59,771 bases of DNA from a virus (Duplodnaviria; Caudoviricetes), in IMG/VR virus record IMGVR_UViG_3300035093_000006, positions 1 to 59,771 of that record, one strand, 5' to 3'. Each line of letters opens with the position of its first letter. The stretch's first letter is position 1. Below, piece by piece: positions 25,598 to 46,997 of this stretch. The notes beneath the pieces are model-generated. The model was not told the DNA's origin, made no database searches, and was given only the letters and a program-made list of their open reading frames with translations. The translations under genes and the position numbers were made by a program.

Positions 25598-26016
25598 CGC
25601 CACCGAGGGCACCGGAGACGGCCCGCTTCGTCTCCCATCTGGAGACCGTCACCGGCCTGGAAGTGCGCGTGAACGACACACCCAAGGACGTGACCGTGCC
25701 CCTCACGGTCCCGCACCTGGTCGTCTGGTCGCTGCCGTCGAACGAGATTTACGCGGCGATGCTCGGTGACGGGCACTACGGCCACACGTTCTCCTGGGAC
25801 GTCTGGGCGGTTGGCTCGCGCGCCGATCAGTGCGAGATGGCGATGGACAAGGTCGTGACCGCGGTGGTGGGGATGACCGACGGCGCCTTCGACCATCCGT
25901 GGCCCAGCGGGGAGCCTTCGCAGCGCCGCTACCTGGGCACCGGGCCGGGCGGGCAGACCGAGAACCGGTCGCTCGTCTGGTCGAACGGGGAGTTCCAGGT
26001 CGTGATCCTGGGGTAG
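25594..26016 (+). CDS. Tail terminator-like protein
   Basis: 140 aa; P.LVVW.., W.VWAVG.RADQC pattern; position before the tail tube. Confidence 0.6.
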   Translation: MTPPRAPETARFVSHLETVTGLEVRVNDTPKDVTVPLTVPHLVVWSLPSNEIYAAMLGDGHYGHTFSWDVWAVGSRADQCEMAMDKVVTAVVGMTDGAFDHPWPSGEPSQRRYLGTGPGGQTENRSLVWSNGEFQVVILG

Positions 26017-26045
26017 TTGTCCCACCCGCTGCGTATGGTCAGCAG

Positions 26046-26561
26046 ATGCCCCTTGGGATCATCAGGCGAGAGCCCAACGAAAAGTTGATGCCCGCCCGCT
26101 TCTGGTTCAACGTCGCCCCCGGCCGGACCGATGACGAGTGCTGGCCGTGGGAAGGCACGATCGAGTCGCATGGGTACGGGCGGATCAAACTCCACAGCCG
26201 CGGCCACATGGTTCACCGTGTCGCCTACGAGCTTGAGGTCGGACCGATCCCCGATGGCCTGACGGTCGACCATGAGTGTCACAACGTGGACCCGACCTGC
26301 TCAGGCGGTCCGACGTGCTTACATCGCCGCTGCGTCAACCCCGCTCACCTGGTGGCGCGCACCACGGCAGAGAACACCCTTCGGTCTCCGACTAACACTG
26401 CGACGATCAACGGGCTGAAGACGCACTGTTTGCGGGGCCACCCTTTCGAGGGCGACAACCTCTATATCGTGCCGTCGACCGGGCAGCGGGCTTGCCGAAC
26501 GTGTCATAGGGGTTGGCACCAAGACTGGAAGGCCCGTCACCGAGTGACGATGCTCGGCTAG
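26046..26561 (+). CDS. HNH homing endonuclease
   Basis: Paralog of 24693; TATGGT ends 6 nt before the ATG (leaderless). Confidence 0.9.
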   Translation: MPLGIIRREPNEKLMPARFWFNVAPGRTDDECWPWEGTIESHGYGRIKLHSRGHMVHRVAYELEVGPIPDGLTVDHECHNVDPTCSGGPTCLHRRCVNPAHLVARTTAENTLRSPTNTATINGLKTHCLRGHPFEGDNLYIVPSTGQRACRTCHRGWHQDWKARHRVTMLG

Positions 26562-27971: not shown

Positions 27972-28300
27972 GCTACGCGGTCCCGCATGGCATCCCGTAC
28001 AGCGAGTTCAAGCGGTGGCGGGAGTTCGACCAGGAAGCCGCCCGAGCCTTCGTGCGCGCGCAGGCCGAGGTGTGCCCGTCGTGCGGTACCCGCGAGGTCG
28101 ATTGGGTGGACCCGGCGACCGGCAAACCGTGGAACCCGCCGAAGTTCGAGCCGGCGACGCGCATCGACCACGGCTGCGAGCAGCTCGGCCGTCTGCGCGC
28201 GTCGCTGCCGAACGACACCCAGCAACGTCCCGGCCTCCAGGTCATCGCGGTTCCGTTCACCCCGCCGACGGTCCCTGAGAGCAACGGCGATGCTCCGTAA
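27936..28300 (+). CDS. Tail assembly chaperone frameshifted extension (GT)
   Basis: RIWGDARFREDLSYAVPHGIPYSEFKRW...D...A.A....EVCPSCGT. Confidence 0.8.
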
Positions 28301-28395
28301 CCTGAGGCGCGCATGAGCGCCTTGGCGAGTAGAATCGTGGAGCCGGGAGTGATGAGACCCCCGGCCCCGCTCCGACCCCTGTGTGGAGGGATCAG

Positions 28396-28956
28396 ATGGC
28401 TCCGAAGCCTAGGCCGTTGGCAGAACGCCTTGAGCAGCACTCCGACCGAAGTGGCGGACCAAACGCCTGTTGGCCGTGGCTGTGCTTTGTCCATGAGAAC
28501 GGTTACGGCGTCATCACGGTCTCTCAGCGAACCATGCTCGTGCATCGCATCGCGTACACCGAGTACGTCGGTCCGATCGCCGAGGGGTTCACGGTCGACC
28601 ATCTGTGCCACGACCCCGAGCAGTGCCCAGGCGGGAAGACGTGCCCGCACCGACGCTGCACGAACCCGAGCCACCTCGGGCTCAAGACGCGCGGCGACAA
28701 CGCGCGACGGGCGAACAACGCGAACGCGCGCAAGACACACTGCAAACAAGGCCACAAGTTCACGCCGGAGAACACAAGATTCACTCCAGCCGGGAAGCGG
28801 ATATGCGCTACCTGCAAGCGGGGTTGGGATCAAGCATTGCGGGACCGTGCCGGGGACGAGATCAACGCGCGGCGCCGCAATCGGACGCGCGCTGAGAAGG
28901 ATCTGGCCAACGCGCGTAAACGCAAGTACCGGCGCCGGCGCGCTCTTTCTGGGTAG
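28396..28956 (+). CDS. HNH homing endonuclease
   Basis: CWPW..GYG..VHRIAY..GPI..VDHLC..HRRCTNPSHL..DN..KTHCKQGH.F; TAGAAT at 28330 and a hairpin leader. Confidence 0.9.
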   Translation: MAPKPRPLAERLEQHSDRSGGPNACWPWLCFVHENGYGVITVSQRTMLVHRIAYTEYVGPIAEGFTVDHLCHDPEQCPGGKTCPHRRCTNPSHLGLKTRGDNARRANNANARKTHCKQGHKFTPENTRFTPAGKRICATCKRGWDQALRDRAGDEINARRRNRTRAEKDLANARKRKYRRRRALSG

Positions 28957-28974
28957 ACCACGAGGGGAGTCCTA

Positions 28975-31900
28975 GTGGCTTCTCGCGTGTTGGAAGTCCG
29001 GCTGATCGGTGACGCGGGCAACTACGCCGCGACCCTGCGCAAGGCCGCGTCCGATACCCAACGCTTCGGCGACCGGGTCAACGCGACGAGCAAGAGCACC
29101 GCGACCGCAGGCACCCACGCCCAGCGCGCCGCGACCTCGTTCGGCCGCTACGGGACGGCGGCGAGCATGGCCGCGGGGCACACGAACGCGGCGGGCAAGG
29201 CGACCTCCTACCTCGGCTCCGTGCTCCAGACCGCGACCGGGACCATGATCGGCTTCGTCGCCGCGTCCGCGCTGATCTCGGGGGTCGGGCGCGCGTTCTC
29301 TGCGGTGTCGGATGCGGTGATCGACTTCGACCGCAACATGCGAAACGTCCAGTCGATCACCCTCCAGTCCGACCGGTCCCTGTCGCGGATGGGCGACACG
29401 ATCCTCGGCTTGTCGAACCGGCTCCCGCAGTCCGCGTCCGAACTCTCGGCCGGCCTCTACGACATCGCGTCCTCAGGGTTCAAGGGTGCGGCTGGGGTGC
29501 GGGTGCTGGAGACCGCAGCGGTAGCCGCGTCCGCGGGGCTCTCGTCCACCGCGACCTCGGCCAAGGGAATCGTCGCGGTCCTCAACGCGTACGGCCTCGG
29601 CGCGGACAAGGCGAAGCAGGTCAGCGACGAGCTGTTCCAGACCGTGAACGTCGGCATCGTCACCTTCGACGAGCTCGCGTCCCAGGTTGGTGACTTCGTC
29701 GGCACCGCCGCCGCGCTGGGGGTCCCGTTCAAGGATCTCGGCTCCGCGTTCGCGGCCATCACTCTCGGCGGGGTCAACTCGGCCGAGGCGGCTACTTCGC
29801 TGAACCGCGTGCTCATCACCATGATCTCTCCCGGCGAAGAACTCGCGGCCACGTTCCGGTCGTGGGGCTTCGAGTCGGGGTCGGCCGCGGTGCAGGCGCT
29901 CGGGCTGCGCGGTGTGATGGAGCGCATCCGCACCGAGACGGGCGGGACCGCGGCGGCGATGCAAGCCCTGTTCCCGGAGATGCGCGCCGCTCGGGGCGCG
30001 TTCATGCTCGTGGCCGCGGAAGGCCGCAACTACGCGCGGGCCGCGGGGGAGATGGCGAAGGCGTCCCTCGGTCTGGGCGCGAGCCAGCGGGCACTGAACG
30101 AGCAGAGCAAGGGGCTCGGCTTCCAGCTCGAGATTATGAAGAACAACATCGTGAACGCGGGGGTGGCGCTCGGGTCCGACATGGCGCCGGGCCTCGCGAA
30201 GGGGATCGCGGGGATGCGCGACCTCGGGCGCGAGGCGATGTCCGTGGGTCGCGAGTTCGGGGAGGCCATCGCTCCGGGGGTGGACGCGGCAGGCCGCGCG
30301 CTCGCGGATCTGGGGGACATCGCCGAGGCCGCGTGGGAGGCCCTCTCGCCGATCCTGGAGTTCGGCGGGGCGGTTGGGCTCCAGGCCGCCGCGGTGACGT
30401 TCAACGCCATCGCGGCCAGCGTCGAGGAGCTCACCGGGTTCCTCTCGGATCACGACGAGATCGTGAAGGCCGTCGCCATCGCCTACTCGGCGCATCTGGT
30501 GATCGGGCTCACCCGGGCCGCGGCCGGGTTCGCGGCGCTGCAGCGCGTCCGGGTCGGCATCTGGCTCCTCGGCATCCAGTCCGGGTTCGCGGGACTCACG
30601 GCCCGGCTCGCCATGTTCAACTCCCTCCTGGCCGGCGGGGTGCCGATCGCGTCCGCGTGGCGCGGCGCGATGGCCGGGATGCTCACCGGTACGGCGGTGC
30701 TCACCGCGGGCCTCGCGGTCGCGATCGGGATGCTGGTCGCCTACAAGGCCGCTCGGGACAAGGCATTCGCCGAGGGTGACGCGGCGGCGAAGGAGATCAC
30801 CGCCGGGTTCAACCTCGACACGCTCAAGTCCTACGAGCGGGCCATCGCTGCGAACCAGCGCGCGGGGGACACCGCCAGGAAGGCGGGCAAGGAGTACGAG
30901 GGTCTGGGTGGTGCGCTGCGTACCGCGGCCGAGGCCCTGAGTCCGTTCAACGAGAACAAGGGCGAAGAGAACCTCGGCGTCATTCGTGGGAGCCGAAAGG
31001 AGGTCGAACGCCTCTCGGGCGAGTACCTGCGCCTCGGGCGCAACATCTCGAAGGTCATCGACAGTGCCGGGCTCGTCGGCAAGCGGCCTCTGCTGATGGG
31101 TTCCACCCCCGAGGCACTCGCGGCGGCGACCACCGCGGTACGCAAGTGGGAGCAGACATCATCGCGGGCGGCGCGCAACGTAGCGATCTTCGCCGACGTG
31201 ATGGGTGTCGACCTGCGCCAGGGCGGAGAGAAGGGCGAGCGCGCGGTGCGCCGGGTGACCCGCGCGCTGATGGAGACAGGCAAGGGCGCCGGGTTCTCCG
31301 CGGAACAGGTCGCGCGCATGAGCGCGAGCCAGATTGCGTCGCTCGGTGACGCCGAGGAAGCCGCCACGAAGTACCGCCAGGGCGTGTTCGACGCGTTCTC
31401 GAAGACGGGCGACATCATCGGCAAGTTGGGCGCCGATCCGTCGAAGCTGAGCCGCGGCGCGATCGAAGCGTTCTACAACGACACGATCGCCCAGAACGAC
31501 AAGTTCCTCGCGAACATCCAGGCCGCCTACCGCACGAAGATCCCGACGAGCCTGATCGCCAAGATGCTCGTCGCCGGCCCGGAAGCCGCGGGCCCGTTGC
31601 TCCAGACGATCCTCGACAACTACGACGACGCCTTCGGTGACTTCCTCACCAAGCAGGAGGCCAGGCTGGCGAAGATGGCGTCGTTCGCCGCGCAGATCGC
31701 GTCGCTCCAACAGATCGCGCTGACTGGTGGCCCGGCGACGGCTGCGCTGCTCCCCGACGCGATCGCGATCCTGCAGGAGTTCCAGGCCGAGATCGACGCG
31801 GGCGCACCCGCGACCATCCAGTCGATCGCGGAGTCGCTCAAGATGCCCGAGTCGGTGGTCGCCACGATCGCCGCGACGTACTCGATCCCGGTACCTGACG

Positions 31901-34900
31901 TGAAGGTGCGGGTCCTGGTCGACCAGGTGACGATGGGGATGACGCAGGAAGAGCTGCGCGCGTTCGTGACGGGTATCGACGCCCTGCCGACCGAGATCCT
32001 CGTCGAGCCGAGGATCGACGACCCGGAGGCGCTGAGCACCTGGGCCGACAAGGCGCGCGTCGCGCTGGTCGAGGTGGAAGGCATCGACCCGACGATCGTT
32101 GCGGGCCTCAAGGACGACCAGGATCTGCTCGCGTTCTTCCGGGCACTGCGGGAACGGCAGGACGCGATCCGGCTCTACCTCGGCCTCAGTGTCGACGTGA
32201 ACGACATGGCGACCCCGAAGCTGCAACTGGTGCAGACGATGATGGACCGGCTGCGCGCCAGTCCGAACGCCTTCCTGAACGTGACCACGACACGTTTCGA
32301 GCGGGTCATCACCGGAGGGGGCTCGCCGTTCGGTGGGAGCGGGAACCGCAAGAACCCGGCCATCGGAGGGATCATCGAGTTCGCCGACGGGGGCATCCAC
32401 CAGGCCCGCCCCGCGAATGTTCGGAACGCTTCGACCACGGCCCGCCCGCGCAACCTCGCCCAGCGGATCGCGTCCCGCGTGCGGTCCTTCGCCCAGGGCG
32501 GTATCGTCGGCCAGCCTGCCAGGGGCGCGGTGCGACGGCCGGTGTCGGGAGGGGCCGGGGGCTGGACCCCGGAGGTTCCAAGCCTTCCCGGCCCGGCCGT
32601 CCGCACGTTCCGCGACGGGGGCACGACCGAGCACCACGTCGCCGGAGCCCGCTGGATCTCACGCGGTGGGCGCGTGCTCTCGTTCAGCCAGGGCGGAATC
32701 ACCGAGTCCCACACGACCGGAGCCACCCGGCGCGCGGTCGCGCGCGGTGGTCTGAGCGACTCCCGCTCCACTGGCCCCACGATCCGCGCGTTCGCGCGGG
32801 GCGGTCTCCACGAGTCCCACGAGCGGGGCTCGGTCTCTCGGCGCTCCGCCACCGGTGGCCTGACCGAGGGGCGTCACGAAGGAGCCCGCCGGCTCCTGTC
32901 GTTCGCGCGCGGGGGACTGATCGAACGGCACACGACCAGCCCGACCATCCGGGCCTTCGCCACTGGCGGGATCGTGGAGACCCACCGCGCCGCGCCGATC
33001 CTGCGCCGCACCACGAACATGCGCGACACCGAGGAGCACCGCACCGGAGGCGTCGCGCGCTCCTTCGCCGCGGGGGGCCTGACGGAGCACCACATCGGCG
33101 CAGATCGGTCGGTCGTCACCAGCGGGGGCCGTGTGCTCGCCTTCGCTCACGGCGGGCTCACCGAGTCCCGGACGACGGGGCCGCGCGTTCGCGCGTTCGC
33201 TGATGGAGGCGTGAGCGAGTCGCTGTTCACCGGTACGCGCTCGGTGCGCTCCGATGGAGCCACCGAATCGACCAGCACCGGCCCGACCGTCCGCACGTAC
33301 GAGCTCGGTGGGCTGCACGAATCGCACCGCGCCGATCGGAGCACGCAGCAGAGCGAGACGCTCGGCCGTCGGGTGCTCGCGTTCGCGGACGGGGGCCTAA
33401 CCGAGTCTCGCGTGGGTGGAGCAGTCGTCCGCTCAATCACCGACGCTCGCACCGAGGCGCACACCGGTACGACCGTGCACGCGCTGAGCCACGGCGGGTT
33501 CGTCGAGTCCCGGGTCATCGGGGGCCGGACGCTGACCTTCGCCCGCGGTGGAGTGGTCGAGTCCCACACCGGAGCACCAGTCACCCGCACGTTCAGTACC
33601 GGGGGAGTCTCCGGGCACCACCAGCGCGGCCCGGTGGTGCGGTCGTTCGCCGACGGCGGCGTCCTCACGCACGCCGAGAGCAACGCCACGCGTTCCCGCT
33701 CCACCTCGGAGCACCTGACCGAGGCCCACGCGCGCTCGCGGGTCCGGTCGTTCTCGGACGGCGCGGTCACGACCTCGACCCAGAACACGGCCCACGTCGC
33801 CGAGCAGACCGAGCGGTTCACCACCCTCGTCCGCGCGTTCGCGCACGGCGGGATCACCGTCTCCCCGGCCACGGCCGGCGCGCTCGCGGGAGCCGACCCC
33901 ACGGTGCAGCGGGCGGTCACTTCGCACTTCACGAATCACGAAGCGCGCACCACGACGAACGAGGTCCGCACCTTCGCCAAGGGCGGGATGAGCGACGACC
34001 CCCACACCGCGACGATCGCGAAGGCAGGCGACTGGCGGGTCTGGGCCGAACCGGAGACCGGCGGCGAGGCGTACATCCCCCTGGCCGCGGCGAAGCGCAA
34101 GCGGTCGACCGCGATCCTCGAGGAGGTGGCCCAGCGGTTCGGGCTCCAGCTCGTGTCCCAGAGCGCGACCCCGTTCGCGCAGGGCGGCACGACGACGACC
34201 AGCACCAGCACCTCGAGCTCGAGCCGGTCGACCTCCGTGGTGGAGCGCCTGGTGCGCCAGGTCACCGACCGGATCAGCCGAGCGGCCCGGACGTGGAGTG
34301 AGACGGGCCAGCGGGTCGTGGACGTGCTCCAGCGCACCCAGACGGTACGGAGCACCCAGGAGACGACGAACCGGACATCGACCGACACGCAGGTCGCCCG
34401 GCTCCTGGCCTCTCAGGGCCGCTCTACCACCTCGACCGCTCAGACCTCCACCTCGACCCGTTCAGCCTCGCAGCGGTCCACCACGGCCGAGAGACGCCAG
34501 ATCGTGAGCACGACCAGCCTGCGGGAGTCCAGGGAACGGCGGGTGGTCGGTCGGGTCGCCACGGAGCGTCTGATCCAGGAGTCCTCCGCGGTGCGCAGAG
34601 TGGCCGACGAGCGGACGCGGGTGGAGACGCTCGCCTTCCGCCGGATGGGCACCCTCGCCGGTCGCGAGGCCACGAGCACCCGAGCTGCACCGAAGCCGGG
34701 CGAGGCCGTCCCCGACTTCGAGCGGGCCGCGCGCGCCCGAGCTCGCACAGAGGACACCGCGGCGGAGGTCCGGCTGCGTCACGACCGCTCGCTGATCGAC
34801 GAGTTCACCCGGTCCTGGTCCGAGACGATGGTCCAGCCCAACCGGGGGACCCCGAAGCCGCCAGCACCCGAGCGCGAGATCACCGAAGTGCTCCGCTCCC

Positions 34901-35238
34901 TCAGCCGCGAACAGTCCGAGAGCGCGGTGGTGCTGCGCCGCGTCGCGCAGACCGCGTCCACCGTCCATCGCAGCGCGGAGACGACCCTCACCCGCGCGAC
35001 CCACCAGACGCTCCCCGCCCAGCAGCCCGCGCCGGCACCGACCCGCTCCGGGCACCCGAACCTCGCGCCGGCCAGCGGGGGTGGCGGGACCGTGGTCAAC
35101 GCGCCGGTCACGATCCAGTGGAACGGCCCGGTCTACGGCGACGAAGCCCTGAAGGCCACCGCGCAGTCGATCGCGCAGCGGGTCGTGTCGGACTCGGCGG
35201 AGGATCAGGCCCAGCGGATCAGGCAACGGAGCAACTGA
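28975..35238 (+). CDS. Tape measure protein (TP901-family core) with expanded C-terminal FAxGG repeat array
   Basis: 2087 aa; FDRNMRNV..LY.IASSG..D.LFQTV..G.VTF.ELA core; TM-like segment; WRVWAEPETGGEAYIPL domain; follows the chaperones. Confidence 0.95.
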   Translation: MASRVLEVRLIGDAGNYAATLRKAASDTQRFGDRVNATSKSTATAGTHAQRAATSFGRYGTAASMAAGHTNAAGKATSYLGSVLQTATGTMIGFVAASALISGVGRAFSAVSDAVIDFDRNMRNVQSITLQSDRSLSRMGDTILGLSNRLPQSASELSAGLYDIASSGFKGAAGVRVLETAAVAASAGLSSTATSAKGIVAVLNAYGLGADKAKQVSDELFQTVNVGIVTFDELASQVGDFVGTAAALGVPFKDLGSAFAAITLGGVNSAEAATSLNRVLITMISPGEELAATFRSWGFESGSAAVQALGLRGVMERIRTETGGTAAAMQALFPEMRAARGAFMLVAAEGRNYARAAGEMAKASLGLGASQRALNEQSKGLGFQLEIMKNNIVNAGVALGSDMAPGLAKGIAGMRDLGREAMSVGREFGEAIAPGVDAAGRALADLGDIAEAAWEALSPILEFGGAVGLQAAAVTFNAIAASVEELTGFLSDHDEIVKAVAIAYSAHLVIGLTRAAAGFAALQRVRVGIWLLGIQSGFAGLTARLAMFNSLLAGGVPIASAWRGAMAGMLTGTAVLTAGLAVAIGMLVAYKAARDKAFAEGDAAAKEITAGFNLDTLKSYERAIAANQRAGDTARKAGKEYEGLGGALRTAAEALSPFNENKGEENLGVIRGSRKEVERLSGEYLRLGRNISKVIDSAGLVGKRPLLMGSTPEALAAATTAVRKWEQTSSRAARNVAIFADVMGVDLRQGGEKGERAVRRVTRALMETGKGAGFSAEQVARMSASQIASLGDAEEAATKYRQGVFDAFSKTGDIIGKLGADPSKLSRGAIEAFYNDTIAQNDKFLANIQAAYRTKIPTSLIAKMLVAGPEAAGPLLQTILDNYDDAFGDFLTKQEARLAKMASFAAQIASLQQIALTGGPATAALLPDAIAILQEFQAEIDAGAPATIQSIAESLKMPESVVATIAATYSIPVPDVKVRVLVDQVTMGMTQEELRAFVTGIDALPTEILVEPRIDDPEALSTWADKARVALVEVEGIDPTIVAGLKDDQDLLAFFRALRERQDAIRLYLGLSVDVNDMATPKLQLVQTMMDRLRASPNAFLNVTTTRFERVITGGGSPFGGSGNRKNPAIGGIIEFADGGIHQARPANVRNASTTARPRNLAQRIASRVRSFAQGGIVGQPARGAVRRPVSGGAGGWTPEVPSLPGPAVRTFRDGGTTEHHVAGARWISRGGRVLSFSQGGITESHTTGATRRAVARGGLSDSRSTGPTIRAFARGGLHESHERGSVSRRSATGGLTEGRHEGARRLLSFARGGLIERHTTSPTIRAFATGGIVETHRAAPILRRTTNMRDTEEHRTGGVARSFAAGGLTEHHIGADRSVVTSGGRVLAFAHGGLTESRTTGPRVRAFADGGVSESLFTGTRSVRSDGATESTSTGPTVRTYELGGLHESHRADRSTQQSETLGRRVLAFADGGLTESRVGGAVVRSITDARTEAHTGTTVHALSHGGFVESRVIGGRTLTFARGGVVESHTGAPVTRTFSTGGVSGHHQRGPVVRSFADGGVLTHAESNATRSRSTSEHLTEAHARSRVRSFSDGAVTTSTQNTAHVAEQTERFTTLVRAFAHGGITVSPATAGALAGADPTVQRAVTSHFTNHEARTTTNEVRTFAKGGMSDDPHTATIAKAGDWRVWAEPETGGEAYIPLAAAKRKRSTAILEEVAQRFGLQLVSQSATPFAQGGTTTTSTSTSSSSRSTSVVERLVRQVTDRISRAARTWSETGQRVVDVLQRTQTVRSTQETTNRTSTDTQVARLLASQGRSTTSTAQTSTSTRSASQRSTTAERRQIVSTTSLRESRERRVVGRVATERLIQESSAVRRVADERTRVETLAFRRMGTLAGREATSTRAAPKPGEAVPDFERAARARARTEDTAAEVRLRHDRSLIDEFTRSWSETMVQPNRGTPKPPAPEREITEVLRSLSREQSESAVVLRRVAQTASTVHRSAETTLTRATHQTLPAQQPAPAPTRSGHPNLAPASGGGGTVVNAPVTIQWNGPVYGDEALKATAQSIAQRVVSDSAEDQAQRIRQRSN
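32380..34188 (+). repeat. About 22 degenerate R-x-F-A-x-G-G-h-x-E-x-H peptide repeats
   Basis: Counted by eye in the translation (FADGG, FAQGG, FRDGG, FSQGG, FARGG x3, FATGG, FAAGG, FAHGG x2, FSTGG, FAKGG and looser copies). Confidence 0.9.
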
Positions 35239-37481
35239 TGGCCCCCACCGCGCACCGAATCGCGTTCAACCCGAACGACCACGACCAGTCGCTGACCCTC
35301 TGGACCGACGGGACGATCCGCGCCCACGGCGGCGCGCTGAACCCGATGCTCGTCGACACGCCACCCTTCACCGCGTTCCCGGGAGACGACACCGGCCCGG
35401 TCGTCGCGTTCCAGGTGATCGACTGGAACGACCCGAGCGGGTACAGCCTCGACTTCTTCGGCGGTATCCACCCCTGGGGGCCGTCGGGTCAGATCCCCGC
35501 CGCACCGAGCCCTCCCCCGACCTACTACGGGCCGGGGCTGCCCCGCATCGTTGTCGATTTCTGGATGGACCCCTCCGGGTCGGGCGCGGGATACAACCTG
35601 CTCGTCACCGGCACCATCAACGCGGGGGGTGGCGCGCCGGCGCTCAGCCAGGGCGGCCCGGCACTCGACCCCGACATTGCGCGCCGGCTCGTCATGCGCC
35701 CCGGCGCGCTCGGCGCAGGTCGCGACTACTACGTCATGGACGCGTTCGGAGCCCGGCACAACCGCAACGGCGCGGTCGCGATCGGGGGCTCCCCCTACTT
35801 CCCGGGTGTCTCGATCGCGCGCGCGCTGGTCATCACCGACTGGGTCAACGGCGACGGGTACCTGATGGACGGGTACGGCAACGTCTACGCGCTCGGCGAC
35901 GCGCAACCGGCCCAGGGCGGCCAGGAGTGGCCGGGCTGGGACATCGCCCGCGACATGGCGGTGGTGGACAACGGCGACGACCCGCTCTTCCCGCTGCGCG
36001 TGTCGAAGCTCGACGGCAACGGCGGACGGAACATCTTCGTCGTGAGCAAGCCCCCGAACGTCATCGCGGGCGGGATCGGCAGCGCGTTCCCCGCCGACCC
36101 GACCACCACCACGACGCGTCCCCGGTTGACCTGGGCGTACAAGGACCCGGAGAACGACGCGCAACGCCGCTTCGAGTTCCTCGTCTTCGCCGAGTCCTAC
36201 GTCACAGCGAACTTCCAGAGCGAGGTGCAGACCCTCGTGCGCGACACCACCGACGCTGGAGGGACGTTCAAGCTCCGCTTCGGCGGCGCGCTCACCCCGG
36301 CCATCGCCCAGAACGCCAACGCCGCGACCGTCCAGGCCGCGCTCGACGCGCTCTGGGGCGTACCCGCGGGCGCGATCGTCGCGTCGGGGACCCTGTCGGG
36401 CACGAACACGATGACCCTCACCTACAACGGCCACGTCCGCGTGAACCGGGTCCGCCAACCGGTGATCGTCCCCCAGAACATGACGGGCGGTACCCGGATC
36501 ATCGCGACCCGCACCCAGGCCGGCACCGACCCGTGGGCGCACCGGGACAACGCGATCATGGACCGGGTCGGCAACGAGTCGGACCGGCGCTTCTACGACC
36601 CGACCTTCGACCTCGCCAACGGCGGGTACCGCATGGTGATCCGGGTCAAGGACACGAGCGACCAGTGGTCCCCGACCTCGGGCCACGTCTGGCTCCAGTC
36701 CGTCACCCGCCCCACCGCGCCCACCCTCACCGCGACCGACATGGGCGGGGCCGGCGGGATCGAGCTCGCGATCGGCTACGGCTCCCCACCCGCCAACTCG
36801 CAGCTCCTGGTCGAGTTCTCCGACGACGCGGGCGTGACATGGGAGGAGATCCGCTACTTCGATCCGGTCACCCTCGAGCCCCCGACCGTCGCCCTCCCCA
36901 CCGCGCTGATCGACACCGAGGCACCGTTCCACCGTCTGCGGTCGTACCGGGCGTTCACCTACATCGCCGACCCGTTCCTCGCGTCGAACCCGAGCACCAC
37001 CGCAACCGCGACGCTCAGCGCGGGCACTCCGCCGGTCGCGTACCTGCTCCACCCGATCGACCGGCCCGACCTGGTCATGGAGATCGACGCGGTCCCGCCC
37101 TACGACTTCTCCCGCGGCGCGGGTGGCGGGAGCTTCCAGGGTGCGGGCCAGCGGTTCCCGGTCAACGTCCGCGACGGCGCACCGCGAGGACCGAAGGGGC
37201 CGCTGAAGGTCCGGCTCGACGGGGAGGTCGTGATCGAGGCGTTCGACGCGGTCATCGCTACCGCGCAGACGTTGCTCTGTCGGGACACGCACGGTCGGGT
37301 GACGTACTTCTCGATCATGGGTGACATCGACTACACCCAGCCGCTCGCGCCCGCGCCCGCCTCCGAGCAGGCCAACGGTCACCCGGTGCGCTACTGGTAT
37401 GACCCGGTGACGATCCCCTACGTCTCCGAGGCCCGCCCGCCGTCGGTGCTGCCCGCTCCGTTCGTGACCCCGGCCGTCTAG
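35238..37481 (+). CDS. Minor tail (distal-tail-like) protein with propeller-type repeats, FN3-like segments and an EVQ insert
   Basis: Repeats GY.LD.FGGIHPWG / YFPGVSIARAL / GY.MDGYGNVYALG / WPGWDIARDM; TTRPRLTWAYKDPENDAQ; first gene after the tape measure. Confidence 0.75.
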   Translation: MAPTAHRIAFNPNDHDQSLTLWTDGTIRAHGGALNPMLVDTPPFTAFPGDDTGPVVAFQVIDWNDPSGYSLDFFGGIHPWGPSGQIPAAPSPPPTYYGPGLPRIVVDFWMDPSGSGAGYNLLVTGTINAGGGAPALSQGGPALDPDIARRLVMRPGALGAGRDYYVMDAFGARHNRNGAVAIGGSPYFPGVSIARALVITDWVNGDGYLMDGYGNVYALGDAQPAQGGQEWPGWDIARDMAVVDNGDDPLFPLRVSKLDGNGGRNIFVVSKPPNVIAGGIGSAFPADPTTTTTRPRLTWAYKDPENDAQRRFEFLVFAESYVTANFQSEVQTLVRDTTDAGGTFKLRFGGALTPAIAQNANAATVQAALDALWGVPAGAIVASGTLSGTNTMTLTYNGHVRVNRVRQPVIVPQNMTGGTRIIATRTQAGTDPWAHRDNAIMDRVGNESDRRFYDPTFDLANGGYRMVIRVKDTSDQWSPTSGHVWLQSVTRPTAPTLTATDMGGAGGIELAIGYGSPPANSQLLVEFSDDAGVTWEEIRYFDPVTLEPPTVALPTALIDTEAPFHRLRSYRAFTYIADPFLASNPSTTATATLSAGTPPVAYLLHPIDRPDLVMEIDAVPPYDFSRGAGGGSFQGAGQRFPVNVRDGAPRGPKGPLKVRLDGEVVIEAFDAVIATAQTLLCRDTHGRVTYFSIMGDIDYTQPLAPAPASEQANGHPVRYWYDPVTIPYVSEARPPSVLPAPFVTPAV

Positions 37482-38678
37482 ATGTACGCCACGAGTTCTC
37501 GCTTCCTCCAGGAGCCGAAGCGGTCCCACACCGCGCTCACCTACTGCGAGGTCTGGGAAGCGGGAGCCCGCGTCCGTGGCCGCGCCGGCCAGCCCCTCAC
37601 GATCTACCCGGTCGCCGGGTCGATCACCGTCGAAGCGACCGCGCCGATCCGCCGTTCGATCAACGTCGACTTCGGACCGCGCGCCGAGGACGCGACGGAC
37701 CTGATCCCCGACGACAACGGCAACGGCCCGATCGGCCCCTACGGCACCGAACTCCGCGTGTACCGCGGGTTCGTCTACCCGACCGTGAACGCCGAGACGG
37801 GCTCCGCCACCGAGGTCGTCCCGATCGGCGCGTTCCGGCTCACGAAGCCGGTCATCGGCGAACGAGACGGCGCCATGACGATCCGTTGCCGGGGCTTCGA
37901 CTTCGCCTGGCTGCTCCAAACCCCGCTGCGCGTCCCGCACATCATCCCCGCCGGCACCGAGGTCGGCGCCGCGTTCCGCTCGCTCGTGAACGCGAAGGCG
38001 CCGTTCCTGCGGGTGGAGGCGACCGAGACGCGCTTCACCGTCCCCTCCGACGTGGTGGTCGGCCGGGACAACGACCCGTGGGAGATCGCCCGCGAGCTCG
38101 CCGCGTCCGCGGGGTGCAACGCGTACGCGGACGTGGAAGGCCGCATCGTCATGGCGCCCACGAGCCTGAAGGTGTCGCGCCAGTACGTCTGGGATTTCAA
38201 CGCCGACGCACCGCCCGAGGACCCGAGCGTGCCGGTCATCGACCTCGAGCGTTCCTACGACAACGACCGCTCCCCGAACGTCTGGACCGTGATCGGCAAC
38301 AACGGGGGCGCAGCCGGGGACGTGGAAGCCACCGCAGTGGATGACGACCCGCACTCCCCGACGTTCGTGGGCGGCAAGTACGGGGAGGTCACCGAGCAGG
38401 TCCGCACTGAGCTGGTCCGCACGAACGACCAGGCCGACGAGATGGCCCACGCCTTGTTGGCGAACTCGATCGGCGCGCACGAGCAACTGCGTCTCTCGTC
38501 GGTGCCGATCCCGAACCTCGCCGAGTGGGACCCTGTCCGGGTGACGCGTGCGGCGCTCGGGGTGAACGGGCGCATCGCGGTGATCGACACCATGAGCATC
38601 CCGTTGACCGCCGAGGAGACGATGGGCCTCTCGCTGCGGCGGATGCCCCTCACTGACATCGGACTGCCGACCGAATGA
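37482..38678 (+). CDS. Minor tail/baseplate hub protein (DUF5047-like)
   Basis: GSITV.ATAPIRRS..PYGTELRVYRG..EVVPIG.FR..YAD.EG..N...V.G..YGEV. Confidence 0.8.
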   Translation: MYATSSRFLQEPKRSHTALTYCEVWEAGARVRGRAGQPLTIYPVAGSITVEATAPIRRSINVDFGPRAEDATDLIPDDNGNGPIGPYGTELRVYRGFVYPTVNAETGSATEVVPIGAFRLTKPVIGERDGAMTIRCRGFDFAWLLQTPLRVPHIIPAGTEVGAAFRSLVNAKAPFLRVEATETRFTVPSDVVVGRDNDPWEIARELAASAGCNAYADVEGRIVMAPTSLKVSRQYVWDFNADAPPEDPSVPVIDLERSYDNDRSPNVWTVIGNNGGAAGDVEATAVDDDPHSPTFVGGKYGEVTEQVRTELVRTNDQADEMAHALLANSIGAHEQLRLSSVPIPNLAEWDPVRVTRAALGVNGRIAVIDTMSIPLTAEETMGLSLRRMPLTDIGLPTE

Positions 38679-41600
38679 CCGACCTCGCCACCGTCCAGGC
38701 CGCTTCGGATCTCGCGAGAGCGATCACCCGCCAGTCTCGCGACAAGCGGCAGCCGATCGTCTACCTCCAGGTGCTCGCGGTCAACGCGACGACGAAGACG
38801 GTCACGGTCAACTTCGACGGTCAGCCGTACACCGTCCCGGCCGACCAGTGCTTCGGGGGTGTCCCGTCCCCGGGCGACGTGGTCGCGGTCCACGTCAACG
38901 GCACCGAGCTGAACATCCTCTCGGTCCCGGGCTGGGCGCGCGTCGGCGTCGGCGCGGCGTGGCGCGACCCGAACGTGGCGTGGCGCTCCCCGACCGTCGC
39001 GTGGCGCGCCGGCGGTACCCCGTACGCCCTGTTCACCGACATGGTGCGCCGCATCGCCGAGGCACTGCTGCGCGCGGGGATCTACACGAACGAGAAGATG
39101 GCCGAAGCCATCTACACCTCGGCGCTCTACACGAACCAGAAGTTCGCCGAGGCGCTGCTCACCGCGGCGACCTACACCAACGACAAGTTCGCCGAAGCCC
39201 TCACGCTCGCGGCGATCTATGCGAACGAGCAGGACGCGATCATGCTCCTGCGCGCGGCGCTCTACACGAACGACCGGATCGCGGCGCTCGACAACGAGAC
39301 GTTGACGATCGACTTCACCACCGACCCCGGACTGTTCGGGCCGCACGTCCTCACTCGACCGGACGGACAGTCTGACCACGACCTGTCGATCGTCGCGGGC
39401 CGGCAGCGGTTCACGGTCGACGCCTCGCACAACGGCAACCTCCGCGAAATCTGGGGTATCCCGGGCACGGGGAAGATCACCGACAGCGAGATGAGAGCGA
39501 CGTGGTTCGACGCGTCCGCCGACCTCTCGGACGCGAACGCGGACTGGCAACCTGGCAACGCGCACCGCCTCACGTACACGAGACAGGACTTCGCGACCGG
39601 CCCGAACGCGACGAGCGGCACGACGACGACGCTCACCGACACGACCCGGACGTGGAACGTGAACGCGTTCGTTGGCGCACTCGGCGACCCGTTCCTGTTC
39701 GAGTGGTACGTCACGGTCACCGCGGGGACCGGCGCCGGGCAGACCCGCCGCATCCGAAGCAACACCGCGAGCACGTTGACCGTCACGCCCGCCTGGACGA
39801 CCGCGCCGGACGCGACCTCCGAGTACGACATCTGGAGTTGGGAAAACCGCGCGATCGTGTGGTCGCTCAACGTCTTCTTCAACGCGCACTTCATCATCAA
39901 CTGCCATGTGTGGGACACGTCGGACCTCACGCAACTCAACACGCCTGGGGTCGGCGACTTCGACGCGTATCTGAGACCCGGCGGGGTGTACCGGCAGTTC
40001 CCGTGGCATGTGAAGTCCCGCGTCGTGGGGATGCAATCCGACTTCGCGATCTGGGTGGACGGCGACCCGGAACCCGCGTACGGGACACCGGGGCAATCGG
40101 CGAGCGTGACGATCCCGGCCGGTTACGAGGGTCCGGGCGAGTGCGGCGTCTACATGGCCCACATCCCGCAGAGCGGATGGCTCGAGGTCGATGACGTAAC
40201 GATCACCTGGCCGAAACCCAAGCGGGACGGCTTCCAGATCATCAACCCCGCATTCGGCGAAGAGGTCATCATCGATCGCTCGCTCGGTTCCACGGTGATG
40301 ATCCTGCTCACCGACTCGTGCGCGATCGGCGATCCGATCCCGGCGACTGACCCGACCGAAGCACCCGAGCTGAACATCGTGTTCGTTCAGGACGAGCAGG
40401 GGCTGAACGGCGTGATCTGGGGGCCGATGTGGGAACACAACAAGTCGAGCCCGCTGGTGGACACCGCGCCGGGCTCAGTCACGACGATGACGTTCCGTCA
40501 CGCCGGGCTCGCCTGGCTGCGCTGGGATTCGACCGACACCGAGGAGGCAACTTCTCGACCCGCTCTCAGTTGCACGTTCCTGCCGGACTTCTCCGACGGG
40601 CGCGCATCGTGGAACTGCATCGGCAACTATGGGCAGGACGACGCCACCCTCGGCCCGGATTACGGCGATGCGCGCCAGCTCAAGATCTGGCATCGCGCAG
40701 GCGACTTCTTCGGTACGGGAGCCGGCGACTACGACATCGACCACCGGGCCGTCATCGCGTACAGAGAGAACACGTTCGGGCCGTTCACCGCGTGGTGGCC
40801 GATGAAGTCCGACGCCTGGTACAACGAGATGGGCAGCTCGGGTTACAACCCTGAGACGAACCTGCTCGGCGAGCGGATCTGGCGGGTCGGTGCCGCCGCG
40901 GCCGGACCGGACGCTCACAACGGGTGGGCGATCGCGTGTAGTACCGACGGGTTTGTCTGGGTGTGCGGCAACCACCACTCCGATCCCCTGCACTTCATCC
41001 GTTCCGCGATTCCCCTCGACGAGTGGGACACCGAAGGGATGGTCGACCCCGGTTGGGTCGCGCCGGGGCTCATCGCCGCGCGTGGCGCGGGTGGCGTCCG
41101 CCCATCGCAGGCCGCGCTCACTGCTGCACACGAGTGGGAGGTCTCGTACCCGGCGTTCGTGCGCCTGCGGAAGCCGCCCTACACGCTGCTGCTCTTCTAC
41201 CGGTCGGGCTACTCCGGCAACGGGTACGGCTACGTCTGTGACCGCTACGTGCCGAGCGGCACGCCCGGTGTCGCGGGGACGTGGGAGCGGGTCGGGAAGG
41301 GTGCCTCGACGCTCTTCGTAGAGACCGTCCGCGACCTCACATTCCCGTGGGACCCGAACATTCACTCCTGGTATCCGCACCAGTTCCTCGCGCTCCCGTC
41401 CGAGGACTCGGTCTACATGGCGGGCACCTGGCGGTACGGGAACACCAACGGCGCGGGCGCGTCGAACGACAACCGGCACTTCGACTTCGCCAAACTCACG
41501 AACCTCGACGGCCCCGGCCCGATGAGCGCCGAGAAGATGGACGGCACCCCCATCGGCGGCAACGCGTTAACGGTCACCAACATGGAGCGCATCCGCGCAA

Positions 41601-42889
41601 CCGGCCAGTACGCGATGAGCAACAGCGGCGCCGGCACGATCGACCACCTCAGCCGACCGCACTGGATGATGCACGCGATCCCCGACGGCATCCCGACGCC
41701 CTACGGTGCCCAGTCGCACCAGATCGCAGACATCCACTGGGACGGGTCCACCTGGCGTACCGACCTCGTGACTCGTACTCCGAACCGGATCCAAGGGATG
41801 GGCTCCGACGAGCAGACGTTCACGAGCGGTGGAGAGGCGGGCGGGATCGTCACTCTCAACATGGCGCCGCACCCGTTCGTCGTCGGCAACAAGGTCATCG
41901 TCAAGTCAAGTACCAATACGGCGTTCAACACCCCCACCGCCGAGCGCGTCGAGCTGATCTCCGTCACGCCGACCCAGGTCCAGTACGCCGCACCGGTGAA
42001 CCTCGATGGCACCGGCGCCATCACGGGCGGCGGCAGCATCACTCGCTCGGACGGCTGGATGTATCTGCGGACCGCGATGTTCGCGGTCGGTGGCCGGATC
42101 TACATCACGTACATAACGCCGTTGGCAGGCAAAGCCGAGACGTTGCGGCTCCTTGACATCACCGACCCGGACAACACATTCGAGACTGTGCTCATGCACG
42201 ACGTGCCGTTTGGTGAACATGAGCTTGACTCGCGCTCGTTGTATGAACGTGGCGAAGTCCACATCGGCATCCACCCGTCGGGCGGCGGATACGCTGACGC
42301 CTGGAACTTCCAAGCCGCCACGATGCTCTCCATCGACACGAAGCAGATAGACAAGCTCATGTCGGGCGGAGGCGCGGTACCAAAGATGCGTGTGATCGGC
42401 ACCGCGCGCCTCGACGTCACGAGCCCGAACTACATCACGAACGTCGGGGTCCGTCAGCGCGGGACACGCAAGCAACAGATCCTCGGACCTGTACCCATCC
42501 ACAAGGAGTACGCCGGGCGGCTCGTGTTCGCCCGGCTCCGCGCGCAGATTCAGAACCTCAACGGTTCGTACCGAGGTCGGATGCGTTGCGCGTACCTGTT
42601 CGGCGGGTACACGAACGACGCCCCGTACAACTTTCTTGGTCCGTCGACCATCACGAACCTCGGCACGACCGAGTTTCAACCGATGTCCACCCCCTGGGTG
42701 CCGATCCCTCACACGGCGCTCTTCGACGGTTCGCTCGCCGAGGACGCGAACGGTCTAGTGATCGGCACGCTCTACATGCACGACGCGGACGAGGACCGCA
42801 CCTGTATCGCCCGTGTCGCGACACTGGAACTCGCGGTGTACGACAACGTCACGGGCACAGTGGCCGAGTATGTCGGGAGGGTCGAGTGA
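38675..42889 (+). CDS. Large tail spike/fibre protein with coiled-coil repeats and BNR_4-like beta-propeller
   Basis: AEA...A.YTN.K repeats (about 39055-39290); AGTGAGQTRRI.SNT domain; DAHN..DG..WV.GNHHS.PL..RS and SYP.F..LLFYRSG.SGNG. Confidence 0.7.
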   Translation: MTDLATVQAASDLARAITRQSRDKRQPIVYLQVLAVNATTKTVTVNFDGQPYTVPADQCFGGVPSPGDVVAVHVNGTELNILSVPGWARVGVGAAWRDPNVAWRSPTVAWRAGGTPYALFTDMVRRIAEALLRAGIYTNEKMAEAIYTSALYTNQKFAEALLTAATYTNDKFAEALTLAAIYANEQDAIMLLRAALYTNDRIAALDNETLTIDFTTDPGLFGPHVLTRPDGQSDHDLSIVAGRQRFTVDASHNGNLREIWGIPGTGKITDSEMRATWFDASADLSDANADWQPGNAHRLTYTRQDFATGPNATSGTTTTLTDTTRTWNVNAFVGALGDPFLFEWYVTVTAGTGAGQTRRIRSNTASTLTVTPAWTTAPDATSEYDIWSWENRAIVWSLNVFFNAHFIINCHVWDTSDLTQLNTPGVGDFDAYLRPGGVYRQFPWHVKSRVVGMQSDFAIWVDGDPEPAYGTPGQSASVTIPAGYEGPGECGVYMAHIPQSGWLEVDDVTITWPKPKRDGFQIINPAFGEEVIIDRSLGSTVMILLTDSCAIGDPIPATDPTEAPELNIVFVQDEQGLNGVIWGPMWEHNKSSPLVDTAPGSVTTMTFRHAGLAWLRWDSTDTEEATSRPALSCTFLPDFSDGRASWNCIGNYGQDDATLGPDYGDARQLKIWHRAGDFFGTGAGDYDIDHRAVIAYRENTFGPFTAWWPMKSDAWYNEMGSSGYNPETNLLGERIWRVGAAAAGPDAHNGWAIACSTDGFVWVCGNHHSDPLHFIRSAIPLDEWDTEGMVDPGWVAPGLIAARGAGGVRPSQAALTAAHEWEVSYPAFVRLRKPPYTLLLFYRSGYSGNGYGYVCDRYVPSGTPGVAGTWERVGKGASTLFVETVRDLTFPWDPNIHSWYPHQFLALPSEDSVYMAGTWRYGNTNGAGASNDNRHFDFAKLTNLDGPGPMSAEKMDGTPIGGNALTVTNMERIRATGQYAMSNSGAGTIDHLSRPHWMMHAIPDGIPTPYGAQSHQIADIHWDGSTWRTDLVTRTPNRIQGMGSDEQTFTSGGEAGGIVTLNMAPHPFVVGNKVIVKSSTNTAFNTPTAERVELISVTPTQVQYAAPVNLDGTGAITGGGSITRSDGWMYLRTAMFAVGGRIYITYITPLAGKAETLRLLDITDPDNTFETVLMHDVPFGEHELDSRSLYERGEVHIGIHPSGGGYADAWNFQAATMLSIDTKQIDKLMSGGGAVPKMRVIGTARLDVTSPNYITNVGVRQRGTRKQQILGPVPIHKEYAGRLVFARLRAQIQNLNGSYRGRMRCAYLFGGYTNDAPYNFLGPSTITNLGTTEFQPMSTPWVPIPHTALFDGSLAEDANGLVIGTLYMHDADEDRTCIARVATLELAVYDNVTGTVAEYVGRVE

Positions 42890-45216: not shown

Positions 45217-45608
45217 ATGGCCCCTCAGCTCATCGACATTCCCGCGCTGCTCGTCGCGAACGGGCGACCCGCGAACGAGAAGAACTTCTACCGCGGTGAC
45301 GGTGGGGACCGCTGGTATCTGAGCCTCGGGTTCACCCGCGACGTTTCGCAGTACGACTTCAAGATGCGGGTCCGCCACAACGACGACCTGCTCTTCGTCG
45401 CGACGATCGGCGGGTCGGACGGCGCCTACATCGACATGACCAACGCGGCAGTCGATCCCGCCTTCGAGATCGTGATTGTCGTGGAAGCGGCAGTGGTCGC
45501 GGAGATCGCCGACCACGAGGTCTCCTGCACCCTAGAGGCGGACCTCGACCAAACGTGGCTGACTTGGGTGCTACCGGTGGAGGGGCCGTTCAACCAGGTG
45601 GGCTCGGA

Positions 45609-45612
<4 letters not shown>
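45217..45612 (+). CDS. Small tail/baseplate adaptor-like protein
   Basis: FYRGD..., beta-rich 131 aa preceding the collagen fibre. Confidence 0.55.

Positions 45613-46993
<1,381 letters not shown>

Positions 46994-46997
<4 letters not shown>

Follow-up and report, generated by a model that had tools for sequence, protein, structure and literature searches.

Why would a tail ruler repeat one short glycine-rich motif about twenty times? The question is raised by the IMG/VR virus record IMGVR_UViG_3300035093_000006, a single virus contig of 59,771 bp and about 69% G+C that was analyzed over its whole length (the window), in which a gene for a tape measure protein (TMP) carries a long run of FAxGG motifs in its distal part. 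An original prediction, made from the DNA letters, had read the stretch from position 32380 to 34188, which opens with the F of the first FADGG (aa 1136) and closes with the final G of FAQGG (aa 1738), as an approximately 22-fold expansion of a possible processing site. As judged from its sequence, the array is genuine: a conserved TMP element was amplified long ago to about 20 recognizable copies, selection has kept them, and amplification on this scale is rare among TMPs. We tentatively read the array as a chain of β-hairpin-like units that would extend the tip-proximal end of the protein.

The FAxGG array and its descent from a conserved module

The gene, a single open reading frame (ORF), can be divided into the following parts:

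28975..35238, plus strand: TMP ORF, 2,087 aa with a GTG start, identified by PF10145, TIGR01760, PHROG matches and G+C content at third codon positions (GC3)
29281..30264 (aa 103-430), plus strand: TP901-type TMP N-terminal domain (TIGR01760, PF10145)
32362..32403 (aa 1130-1143), plus strand: lead-in double GG unit, IGGIIEFADGG..., the counterpart of the ADGG-h-h-x-F..ADGG lead-in of relatives
32470..33873 (aa 1166-1633), plus strand: the array, 24 unit-length segments and 4 short fragments
33874..33954 (aa 1634-1660), plus strand: non-repeat spacer, predicted to be helical by AlphaFold2 (AF2) at moderate confidence
33955..34206 (aa 1661-1744), plus strand: conserved C-terminal module, defined by tblastn, IMG/VR relatives and invariant residues
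34207..35079 (aa 1745-2035), plus strand: second, lineage-specific insertion of ~290 aa between module and anchor
35080..35235 (aa 2036-2087), plus strand: C-terminal anchor-like piece with a Gly run, a short β-like stretch and a helix

The array consists of 24 segments of 16 to 22 aa and four fragments of 8 to 11 aa, with a basic period of 18 aa and the unit consensus G-P-x-V-R-[AST]-F-A-x-G-G-[LIV]-T-E-S-H-T-T. Within aa 1130-1640 the strict motif F[AS]xGG occurs 14 times (16 times across the entire TMP), whereas 10,000 shuffles of the same region that preserve its composition average 0.087 copies and never exceed 3; the loose form [FYLI][ASREQT]xGG is found there 18 times (shuffle mean of 0.72, maximum of 5), and 20 times over aa 1136-1734. 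When a hidden Markov model (HMM) of the unit was built from 12 strict copies, it detected 22 stretches, 10 of them non-seed and 5 of these 10 below 3 bits; at a threshold of at least 5 bits, it matched this TMP 17 times, with the 12 seeds included, and it recognizes 19 of the 24 unit-length segments. The predicted 22-fold expansion therefore holds if weak copies are counted, whereas strict copies number 14 to 16. Strong copies often alternate with degenerate ones, which keep the T-E-x-H half without F-A-x-G-G; the spacing of 15 to 40 aa given in the original prediction reflects this alternation. A Leu-5 variant of the unit, R-V-L-[AS]-F, recurs along the array at aa 1231, 1304, 1384, 1464 and 1516, a regularity that points to duplication in blocks of about four units. 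In composition, the array region (aa 1130-1660) is strongly basic, with an isoelectric point (pI) of 11.7, 66 K+R versus 42 D+E, 28 His and 14% Gly, and only about 4 of the 18 unit positions are hydrophobic. The first 1,100 residues of the TMP are Ala-rich (18% A) and not motif-bearing.

By its profile matches, the protein is a genuine TP901-type TMP, as its identification as a tape measure had implied. PF10145 matches aa 141-333 with 91 bits (cut-off of 33.2) and TIGR01760 matches aa 103-430 with 117.7 bits (cut-off of 28.8), while 14 of the 16 PHROG families that match the protein are annotated as tail length tape measure. GC3 lies between 0.80 and 0.97 in each 300-nt bin, and for this reason the ORF is taken to be one coding frame throughout. 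The database copy of the protein starts 5 aa downstream and is accordingly 2,082 aa long.

Beyond the spacer, the array ends as had been described, in an intact FAKGG...WRVWAEPETGGEAYIPL...FAQGG domain (aa 1667-1738, with FAKGG at 1667 and FAQGG at 1734-1738) that is followed by ~290 aa of Arg/Thr/Ser-rich sequence. The module reads, in order, the last unit VRTFAKGG, the core WRVWAEPETGGEAYIPL, the helix KRKRSTAILEEVAQRFG and the closing FAQGG, and ten of its residues (E1692, E1694, T1695, G1697, E1698, P1702, K1707, R1708, R1710 and S1711) are invariant among 57 sequences. It is this module that is conserved elsewhere. When aa 1112-1747 were compared by tblastn with 50,697 phage records, 94 of these matched, and among the 40 matches listed all but one were limited to the last 66 to 84 residues, i.e., to the module; the exception was Gordonia phage Birdsong, in which 187 residues matched at 29%. 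A relative of the module is encoded in 483 IMG/VR stretches, and its parts (unit, ExETGGEAYIPL core and KRxRS helix) are 47 to 73% identical to the best 80 of these relatives. In 56 non-redundant relatives, the parts follow one another in a set order: a lead-in A-D-G-G-h-h-x-[FY]; one to three [FY]-A-x-G-G units, the last of them often R-x-[RK]-A-F-A-x-G-x-E-x-H; the core [VI]-A-Q-I-A-x-A-G-x-W-R-V-W-A-E-P-E-T-G-G-E-A-Y-I-P-L; and the K-R-x-R-S helix, then often a closing [FY]-A-x-G-G. By sequence comparison, the array unit is an amplified copy of the last unit that precedes the core in these relatives. The module is shared with TP901-type TMPs of actinobacteriophages, among them Microbacterium phage AvGardian, Streptomyces phage Gilgamesh, Corynebacterium phage Stiles and Gordonia phage Birdsong.

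The closest compact counterparts of the protein show what has been added. The five proteins that best match aa 1-1125, self excluded (P0005 to P0009), are 1,216 to 1,252 aa long and, like the annotated actinophage TMPs, share the PF10145 N-terminal domain with this TMP. Four of them (P0005, P0006, P0007 and P0009) are collinear with 93 to 99% of aa 1-1125 at 36 to 38% identity, and P0008 matches 46% of that region at 46% identity. Those four end in a lead-in, one unit, the core, the helix and an anchor of ~40 to 70 aa; they lack both the 470- to 520-aa array and the 290-aa basic insertion. Before the core, the nearest relatives carry the strict motif [FYW][ASG]xGG 0 to 2 times, with degenerate GG units adjacent. 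The TMP studied here is ~840 to 870 aa longer than these relatives, and its alignment with them supports that it is such a protein plus the array (about 470-520 aa) and the basic insertion (~290 aa). The latter is Thr/Ser/Arg-rich (R 14.9%, T 13.4%, S 11.7%; pI 11.7) and is missing from all four of the relatives read. The anchor-like piece behind it resembles the C-termini of the relatives, of three other TMPs (L016, L018 and L020) and of lambda.

We then consider the age of the amplification. The 190 pairs formed by 20 units have a mean identity of 0.38 as protein and 0.53 as DNA (DNA maximum of 0.74), and Tandem Repeats Finder detected no array when run on the DNA. Identical residues of different units are encoded by the same codon in a fraction of 0.465, compared to 0.477 expected from the codon usage of the gene; hence synonymous sites keep no trace of the duplications, and the amplification is evidently old. 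The residues themselves have persisted: G10 is present in 20 of the 20 units, spelled by 4 codons, followed by G11 (19 units), F7 (16), A8 and R5 (14 each) and E14 (13). Motif residues that are kept while synonymous sites have been randomized mark the unit as being under purifying selection, with R5, F7, A8, G10, G11, h12, E14 and H16 maintained. The claim that the motif was kept while the DNA diverged is borne out by these data.

An assembly or gene-calling artefact is hardly credible as the source of the array. The protein is known from one metagenomic contig, and the sole sequencing run in which it was found again may be its own source. Nonetheless, the copies average 53% DNA identity and reach 74% at most, so that an assembler cannot collapse or inflate them, and the GC3 profile indicates one coding frame. 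A second assembler, moreover, yields the same 4 kb: a 31.6-kb Logan contig (run X1, a peat metagenome) spans 31500-35500 with 0 differences, although X1 may be the source sample and is thus not an independent one. Apart from one 179-nt low-depth fragment, the Logan assembly has no joint across the array.

Rarity of the array among tape measure proteins

No homologous array was detected when aa 1130-1640 were searched with phmmer against 1.84 billion representative proteins. Three matches reached an E value of ≤0.001, namely, the TMP itself and two eukaryotic proteins, which were dismissed as low-complexity. A word-indexed search of 5.8 billion proteins likewise returned only the TMP itself among 8,000 scored candidates (lengths of 1,147 to 3,653 aa), a megablast search of the array against phages returned nothing, and the best scores obtained from the ESM Atlas, 0.77 to 0.80, were below the meaningful level.

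Module-bearing TMPs offer a measure of how far this protein departs from its kind. Among 80 of them, [FYW][ASG]xGG was absent from 3 and occurred once in 22, twice in 27, three times in 22, four times in 5 and five times in 1, giving a median of 2 versus 16 in this TMP. The unit profile, at 5 bits or more, had no match in 62 of the same 80 proteins, one in 16 and two in 2. That relatives usually carry few motifs, as originally stated, is thus confirmed, and with 0 to 5 copies and no array in any module-bearing relative, these proteins do not support the view that such arrays are common in tape measures. As a separate observation, two whole C-terminal modules, up to ~570 aa apart, are present in 6 of the 80 TMPs (L047, L070, L100, L103, L105 and L107).

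IMG/VR was further scanned with three FAxGG codon patterns, which differ in the spacing of the motifs (about 7-17, 17-27 and 27-37 aa). FAxGG triplets were found in 88 stretches with the short, 14 with the middle and 8 with the long spacing, counts that are lower bounds given that the scans demand TTC-GCN codons and fixed spacing bands. Most of the matches are triplets placed directly before a G-L-M-G-E-A-G-P-E-A-I-M-P-L core. The short and long scans added 89 loci, which yielded 84 ORFs with at least three motifs, some of which are wrong-frame simple repeats; the motif count was 3 in 56 of these ORFs, 4 in 19, 5 in 4, 6 in 2, 7 in 2 and 8 in 1. A very common TMP ending (L153, L118, L173, L113, L176 and many others) consists of three FAxGG units ~14 aa apart, this core, a Gly run and a V-x-V-N-V anchor; in L015, this ending comes right after a Tape_meas_lam_C domain. 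A triplet joined to this core is evidently a standard TMP architecture by sequence.

Larger arrays are few. The family of L019, L018 and L023 carries about 12 to 14 units of 20 aa, and L019 has a total of 16 [FYW][ASG]xGG motifs; the units, F-Q-S-P-R-L-F-A-x-G-G-M-V, belong to a giant TMP of more than 2,867 aa (L019:1-1200, minus strand). Two others, L024 and L204, have 5 to 7 units of about 34 aa, L133 has 4 units of 14 aa, and L014 has a period of 9 aa. The L019-type, L024/L204 and L133 proteins, TMPs of other uncultured viruses, share with the TMP studied here a distal tandem unit containing [PR]-x-F-A-x-G-G-h, yet their arrays differ from the present one in unit sequence, period and position and show no detectable homology to it. 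In L019, the array is placed after the core and passes the threshold of the Pfam Haemagglutinin (β-helix) repeat with 30 bits (cut-off of 21.5), and the present array does neither. On these comparisons, arrays this large are uncommon in TMPs, although this one does not appear unique in kind.

Scans of genome and metagenome contigs for the motif pattern reveal little on arrays in TMPs: the matches listed were mostly Gly-rich simple repeats outside TMPs, and the core motif was present in 2 of the 159 ORFs with at least three motifs among them. One repeat that came to notice, YYFASGGAMQTGW (Y-Y-F-A-S-G-G-A-M-Q-T-G-W) in a cell-wall-binding-repeat protein of the Lachnospiraceae locus L209, resembles the T-L-F-K-F-A-S-G-G...T-G units of TMPs; a kinship of the TMP units with cell-wall-binding repeats, considered on the strength of this locus, was rejected, having no Pfam support in any TMP tested. 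A search of the literature by motif name retrieved no description of FAxGG, the matches listed being primer strings and unrelated words.

Candidate roles of the array

The reading that we favor, at a probability of about 0.4, is that the array is a chain of β-hairpin-like units forming a basic extension of the tip-proximal TMP end. Each 18-aa unit would comprise two short strand-like stretches flanked by GG and G-P turns; the units would form a meander or coil, maybe ordered only in the tail or in an oligomer, and each would repeat the contact surface that a single copy gives in relatives. Lying at the TMP end in the baseplate channel, this long basic extension would be first out on infection, or second if a C-terminal fragment has been cut off ahead of it, and it would add length to the ruler and/or to the conduit that is ejected. 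Should the protein mature like T5 pb2, a single cut would be likeliest in the core-adjoining copy (~F1667/A1668) and not in every copy.

Several observations are consistent with this reading. In each unit, the turn markers G-G and G-P are nine residues apart and polarity alternates between them, from which we infer a hairpin register that would bring R5, F7, L12, E14 and H16 together on one side of the hairpin, with A6, T13, V4 and S15 on the opposite side. Further hints of structure are the residue preference at nearly every unit position and L019, whose unrelated 20-aa FAxGG array passes the Haemagglutinin-repeat threshold. As to location, two structural papers place the C-terminus of the TMP in the tail tip, in T5 and lambda with the last ~35 residues (PMC10038345, PMC12617516), and in JBD30 the part that precedes the module is described as an unstructured chain, long enough to reach across the baseplate channel. 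By analogy of position, the array would be an expanded tip-proximal segment at the distal end of the lumen, where it might lengthen the tail, bridge a thick actinobacterial wall or bind a partner.

Structure prediction gave only low-confidence models for the repeat fold entertained in the original prediction. In an AF2 model of aa 1130-1760, three-stranded β-meanders appeared at aa 1217-1237 and 1499-1522 with block predicted local distance difference test (pLDDT) values of 69 to 80, without alignment depth there, since the alignment of 57 rows was aligned to the module only. Helices were predicted at model residues 474-530 (aa 1603-1659; block pLDDT of 53 to 84), and in the module the helix at aa 1705-1721 reached a pLDDT of up to 92, with 44 to 77 for the stretch from F-A-K-G-G to the core. 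A homotrimer prediction of aa 1428-1760 (3 x 333 aa, with its own alignment and run without controls) scored 0.00 and 0.00 and speaks neither for nor against oligomerization. Searching the PDB with the single sequence gave chance matches only, and searching it with the module profile gave one weak match, to the phiCD508 TMP in 9G8S (E value of 0.45, 11 bits); the model of that TMP is confined to a short C-terminal section (PMC11948020) and offers no structure of the module, and no solved structure was found to cover it.

A number of points weigh against the hairpin chain. The AF2 model of aa 1130-1760 has a mean pLDDT of 48, with most of the array below 50, and the C-terminus of a compact relative (34 rows) fared little differently, with a mean of 54 and only two helices above 70. 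Compared with Pfam repeat families at E values up to 10, the array gave no match to Fil_haemagg (PF05594), CW_binding_1 (PF01473) or RTX-type repeats. The hairpin picture is drawn from the sequence pattern and the two AF2 islands, and a disordered or flexible chain would fit equally well with the irregular unit lengths (16 to 22 aa, with fragments of 8 to 11) and a grand average of hydropathy of -0.44. Elsewhere, FAxGG arrays have periods of 9, 14, 20 and 34 aa, some with Gly/Ser linkers, which gives the unit the look of a short linear motif more than of a fixed fold.

The last-mentioned points lead to an alternative that we regard as possible if rather unlikely, namely, a multivalent array of short linear motifs in which each unit docks a single partner (for example, a tail assembly chaperone, the lumen of the tube or hub, or a host envelope component) and amplification increases avidity on a flexible basic chain. 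The occurrence of FAxGG units at differing periods in unrelated TMPs (20 aa in L019/L018/L023, 34 aa in L024/L204, 14 aa in L133 and 9 aa in L014), the Gly/Ser-rich linkers of some families and the frequency of triplets ~14 aa apart before a core (the 88 IMG/VR stretches of the short-spacing pattern) would all suit such motifs; so would the AF2 monomers, which leave the units unfolded even with 34 to 57 aligned relatives, as is typical of segments that become ordered on binding. Set against it are the constraints on the unit, in which nearly all 18 positions show a residue preference, so that the array has no free linker, and the fact that no candidate partner protein was identified. Improbable, in our estimate, is plain length expansion, whereby the array and the Thr/Ser/Arg insertion would only lengthen the ruler and the unit would have been duplicated by happenstance. 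TMP length sets tail length, a relation reportedly established by Katsura, Pedersen and Mahony, and the protein exceeds its nearest relatives by several hundred residues. For lambda, a structural report states that gpH dictates tube length (PMC12617516). Length alone, however, would not retain F, A, GG, E and H after the randomization of synonymous sites, and the usual ruler segments, here aa 1-1100, are Ala-rich and lack the motif.

The original prediction centered on proteolysis: each FAxGG copy would be a maturation site, and cutting at all of them would give a ladder of short Arg/His/Thr-rich peptides (about 20 in that prediction, ~15 of 18 to 67 aa as counted here) that ride in the tail and are expelled into the host envelope. 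We consider such multi-site processing distinctly improbable, although selection does act on the motif itself. The intervals between strict motifs (18, 18, 18, 18, 26, 36, 36, 36, 37, 45, 52, 62, 64, 65 and 67 aa) consist largely of the motif-bearing unit, and a Pfam scan of these 18- to 67-aa intervals revealed no domain and no cargo, so that the would-be peptides would be mostly conserved unit. A peptidase domain was sought in the 10 ORFs neighboring the TMP gene, and none was found.

Comparison with TMPs that are cut bears on the same question; the only ones known are T5 and lambda, according to the lambda report (PMC12617516), which is also the source for the following statements on gpH cleavage. 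Lambda gpH carries FATGG at 733 and YATGG at 778, and in this respect the original prediction is correct, but the C-terminal part is not lost: the fragment is cut off yet stays with the virion, where three copies of it are bound to gpI. Residues ~690-817 are given there as unresolved, and the cut site and the protease as unknown. A fragment of ~14 kDa cut from a "glycine-rich region" would be compatible with FATGG 733, as residues 733-853 amount to ~120 aa. In both proteins, an [FY]AxGG pair surrounds a short Gly/Glu segment before a C-terminal anchor, the order of parts being the same, but the likeness of the pair at 1667/1734 to that at 733/778 is at motif level only. Lambda gpH has only two copies of the motif, scores ~0 bits with the actinophage module profile and -2 bits with a FAxGG-core profile built from 35 non-redundant modules, and contains PF09718 at aa 627-701 (79.5 bits; 62.9 bits in L015), which is not in this TMP.

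T5 pb2 comes closer. It is cut after R1127 into pb2* and pb2C, as stated in the T5 paper (PMC10038345), and the bond lies in ...V-P-R/A-E-G-G..., thirteen residues before G-E-H-G-T-E-V-V-T-P. The FAxGG-core profile, which scores 16.6 bits on the module here (aa 1652-1705) and 6 to 11 bits on the units, matches T5 aa 1117-1152 and places R1127/A1128 opposite the F/A pair of its last unit; with 4.7 bits this is a weak match, at a score reached in 0 of 1,000 shuffles of pb2. A GE-x-G-x-E-h-h-x-P core stands just beyond the cut, and at this weak score the cut region pairs with the last unit and the core of the profile. These likenesses would favor, if weakly, the motif as a place of cutting. On the other hand, pb2 has a single unit adjoining the core, with Arg as the P1 residue where the unit has Phe; the actinophage module profile scores about 0 to 1 bit on pb2 and not at the cut place; HxxE, which has been discussed as a peptidase motif, is present in the T5 core and missing from this TMP; and PF24165 (TMP_C) is found in pb2 but not here. 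By analogy, the T5 case would support at most one cut, in the core-adjoining unit. In gp46 of Pseudomonas phage JBD30 (L440), we observed FASGG at 1019, the core variant ...D-S-I-P-I-L-A-S-N-D-E-F-M-T... and a later H-A-T-G-G; the authors of the JBD30 paper place a speculative cut at R1066, between the two, after the module and not at FASGG. The still broader proposal that the FAxGG unit is a general TMP maturation site, with lambda and T5 as instances, which was multiplied here so that ~15 basic His-rich peptides are released into the host wall before the DNA, is a long shot.

Variants of the module are seen in TMPs of lambda, T5-like phages, JBD30, phiCD508 and actinophages, in the region where TMPs are cut, and the ~20-fold multiplication of a selected unit suggests that the FAxGG unit is a self-contained functional element. 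The array would supply many copies of the unit for tests of its role, be this in cutting, in docking or in the stacking of hairpins. Were it a cut site, the gpH*/gpHC junction of lambda would become predictable; if the structural extension that we favor is correct, the array would represent a non-helical way to lengthen the tip end of the tail ruler.

Gene neighborhood and the virus

The window has an estimated CheckV completeness of about 69% and belongs to an uncultured, siphophage-like virus from a peat metagenome, whose host is probably actinobacterial. The TMP gene stands in the setting of a tail module, with a portal-like ORF upstream (11933-13783), chaperone-like ORFs at 27987-28975 and distal tail genes downstream (35238-38678), among them a tail protein ORF at 37482-38678 (phrog_1887, 153.6 bits). 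Past the tail genes, an ORF of 1,404 aa (38675-42889, plus strand) contains a BNR_4 repeat domain (62.5 bits) and possibly encodes a receptor-binding or glycan-binding tail protein. Farther downstream, a 480-aa ORF (45555-46997, plus strand) with collagen triple-helix repeats (PF01391, 90.8 bits) probably encodes a tail fiber. Amid the structural genes, an ORF at 25830-26561 on the plus strand contains an HNH endonuclease domain (PF13392, 37.4 bits).

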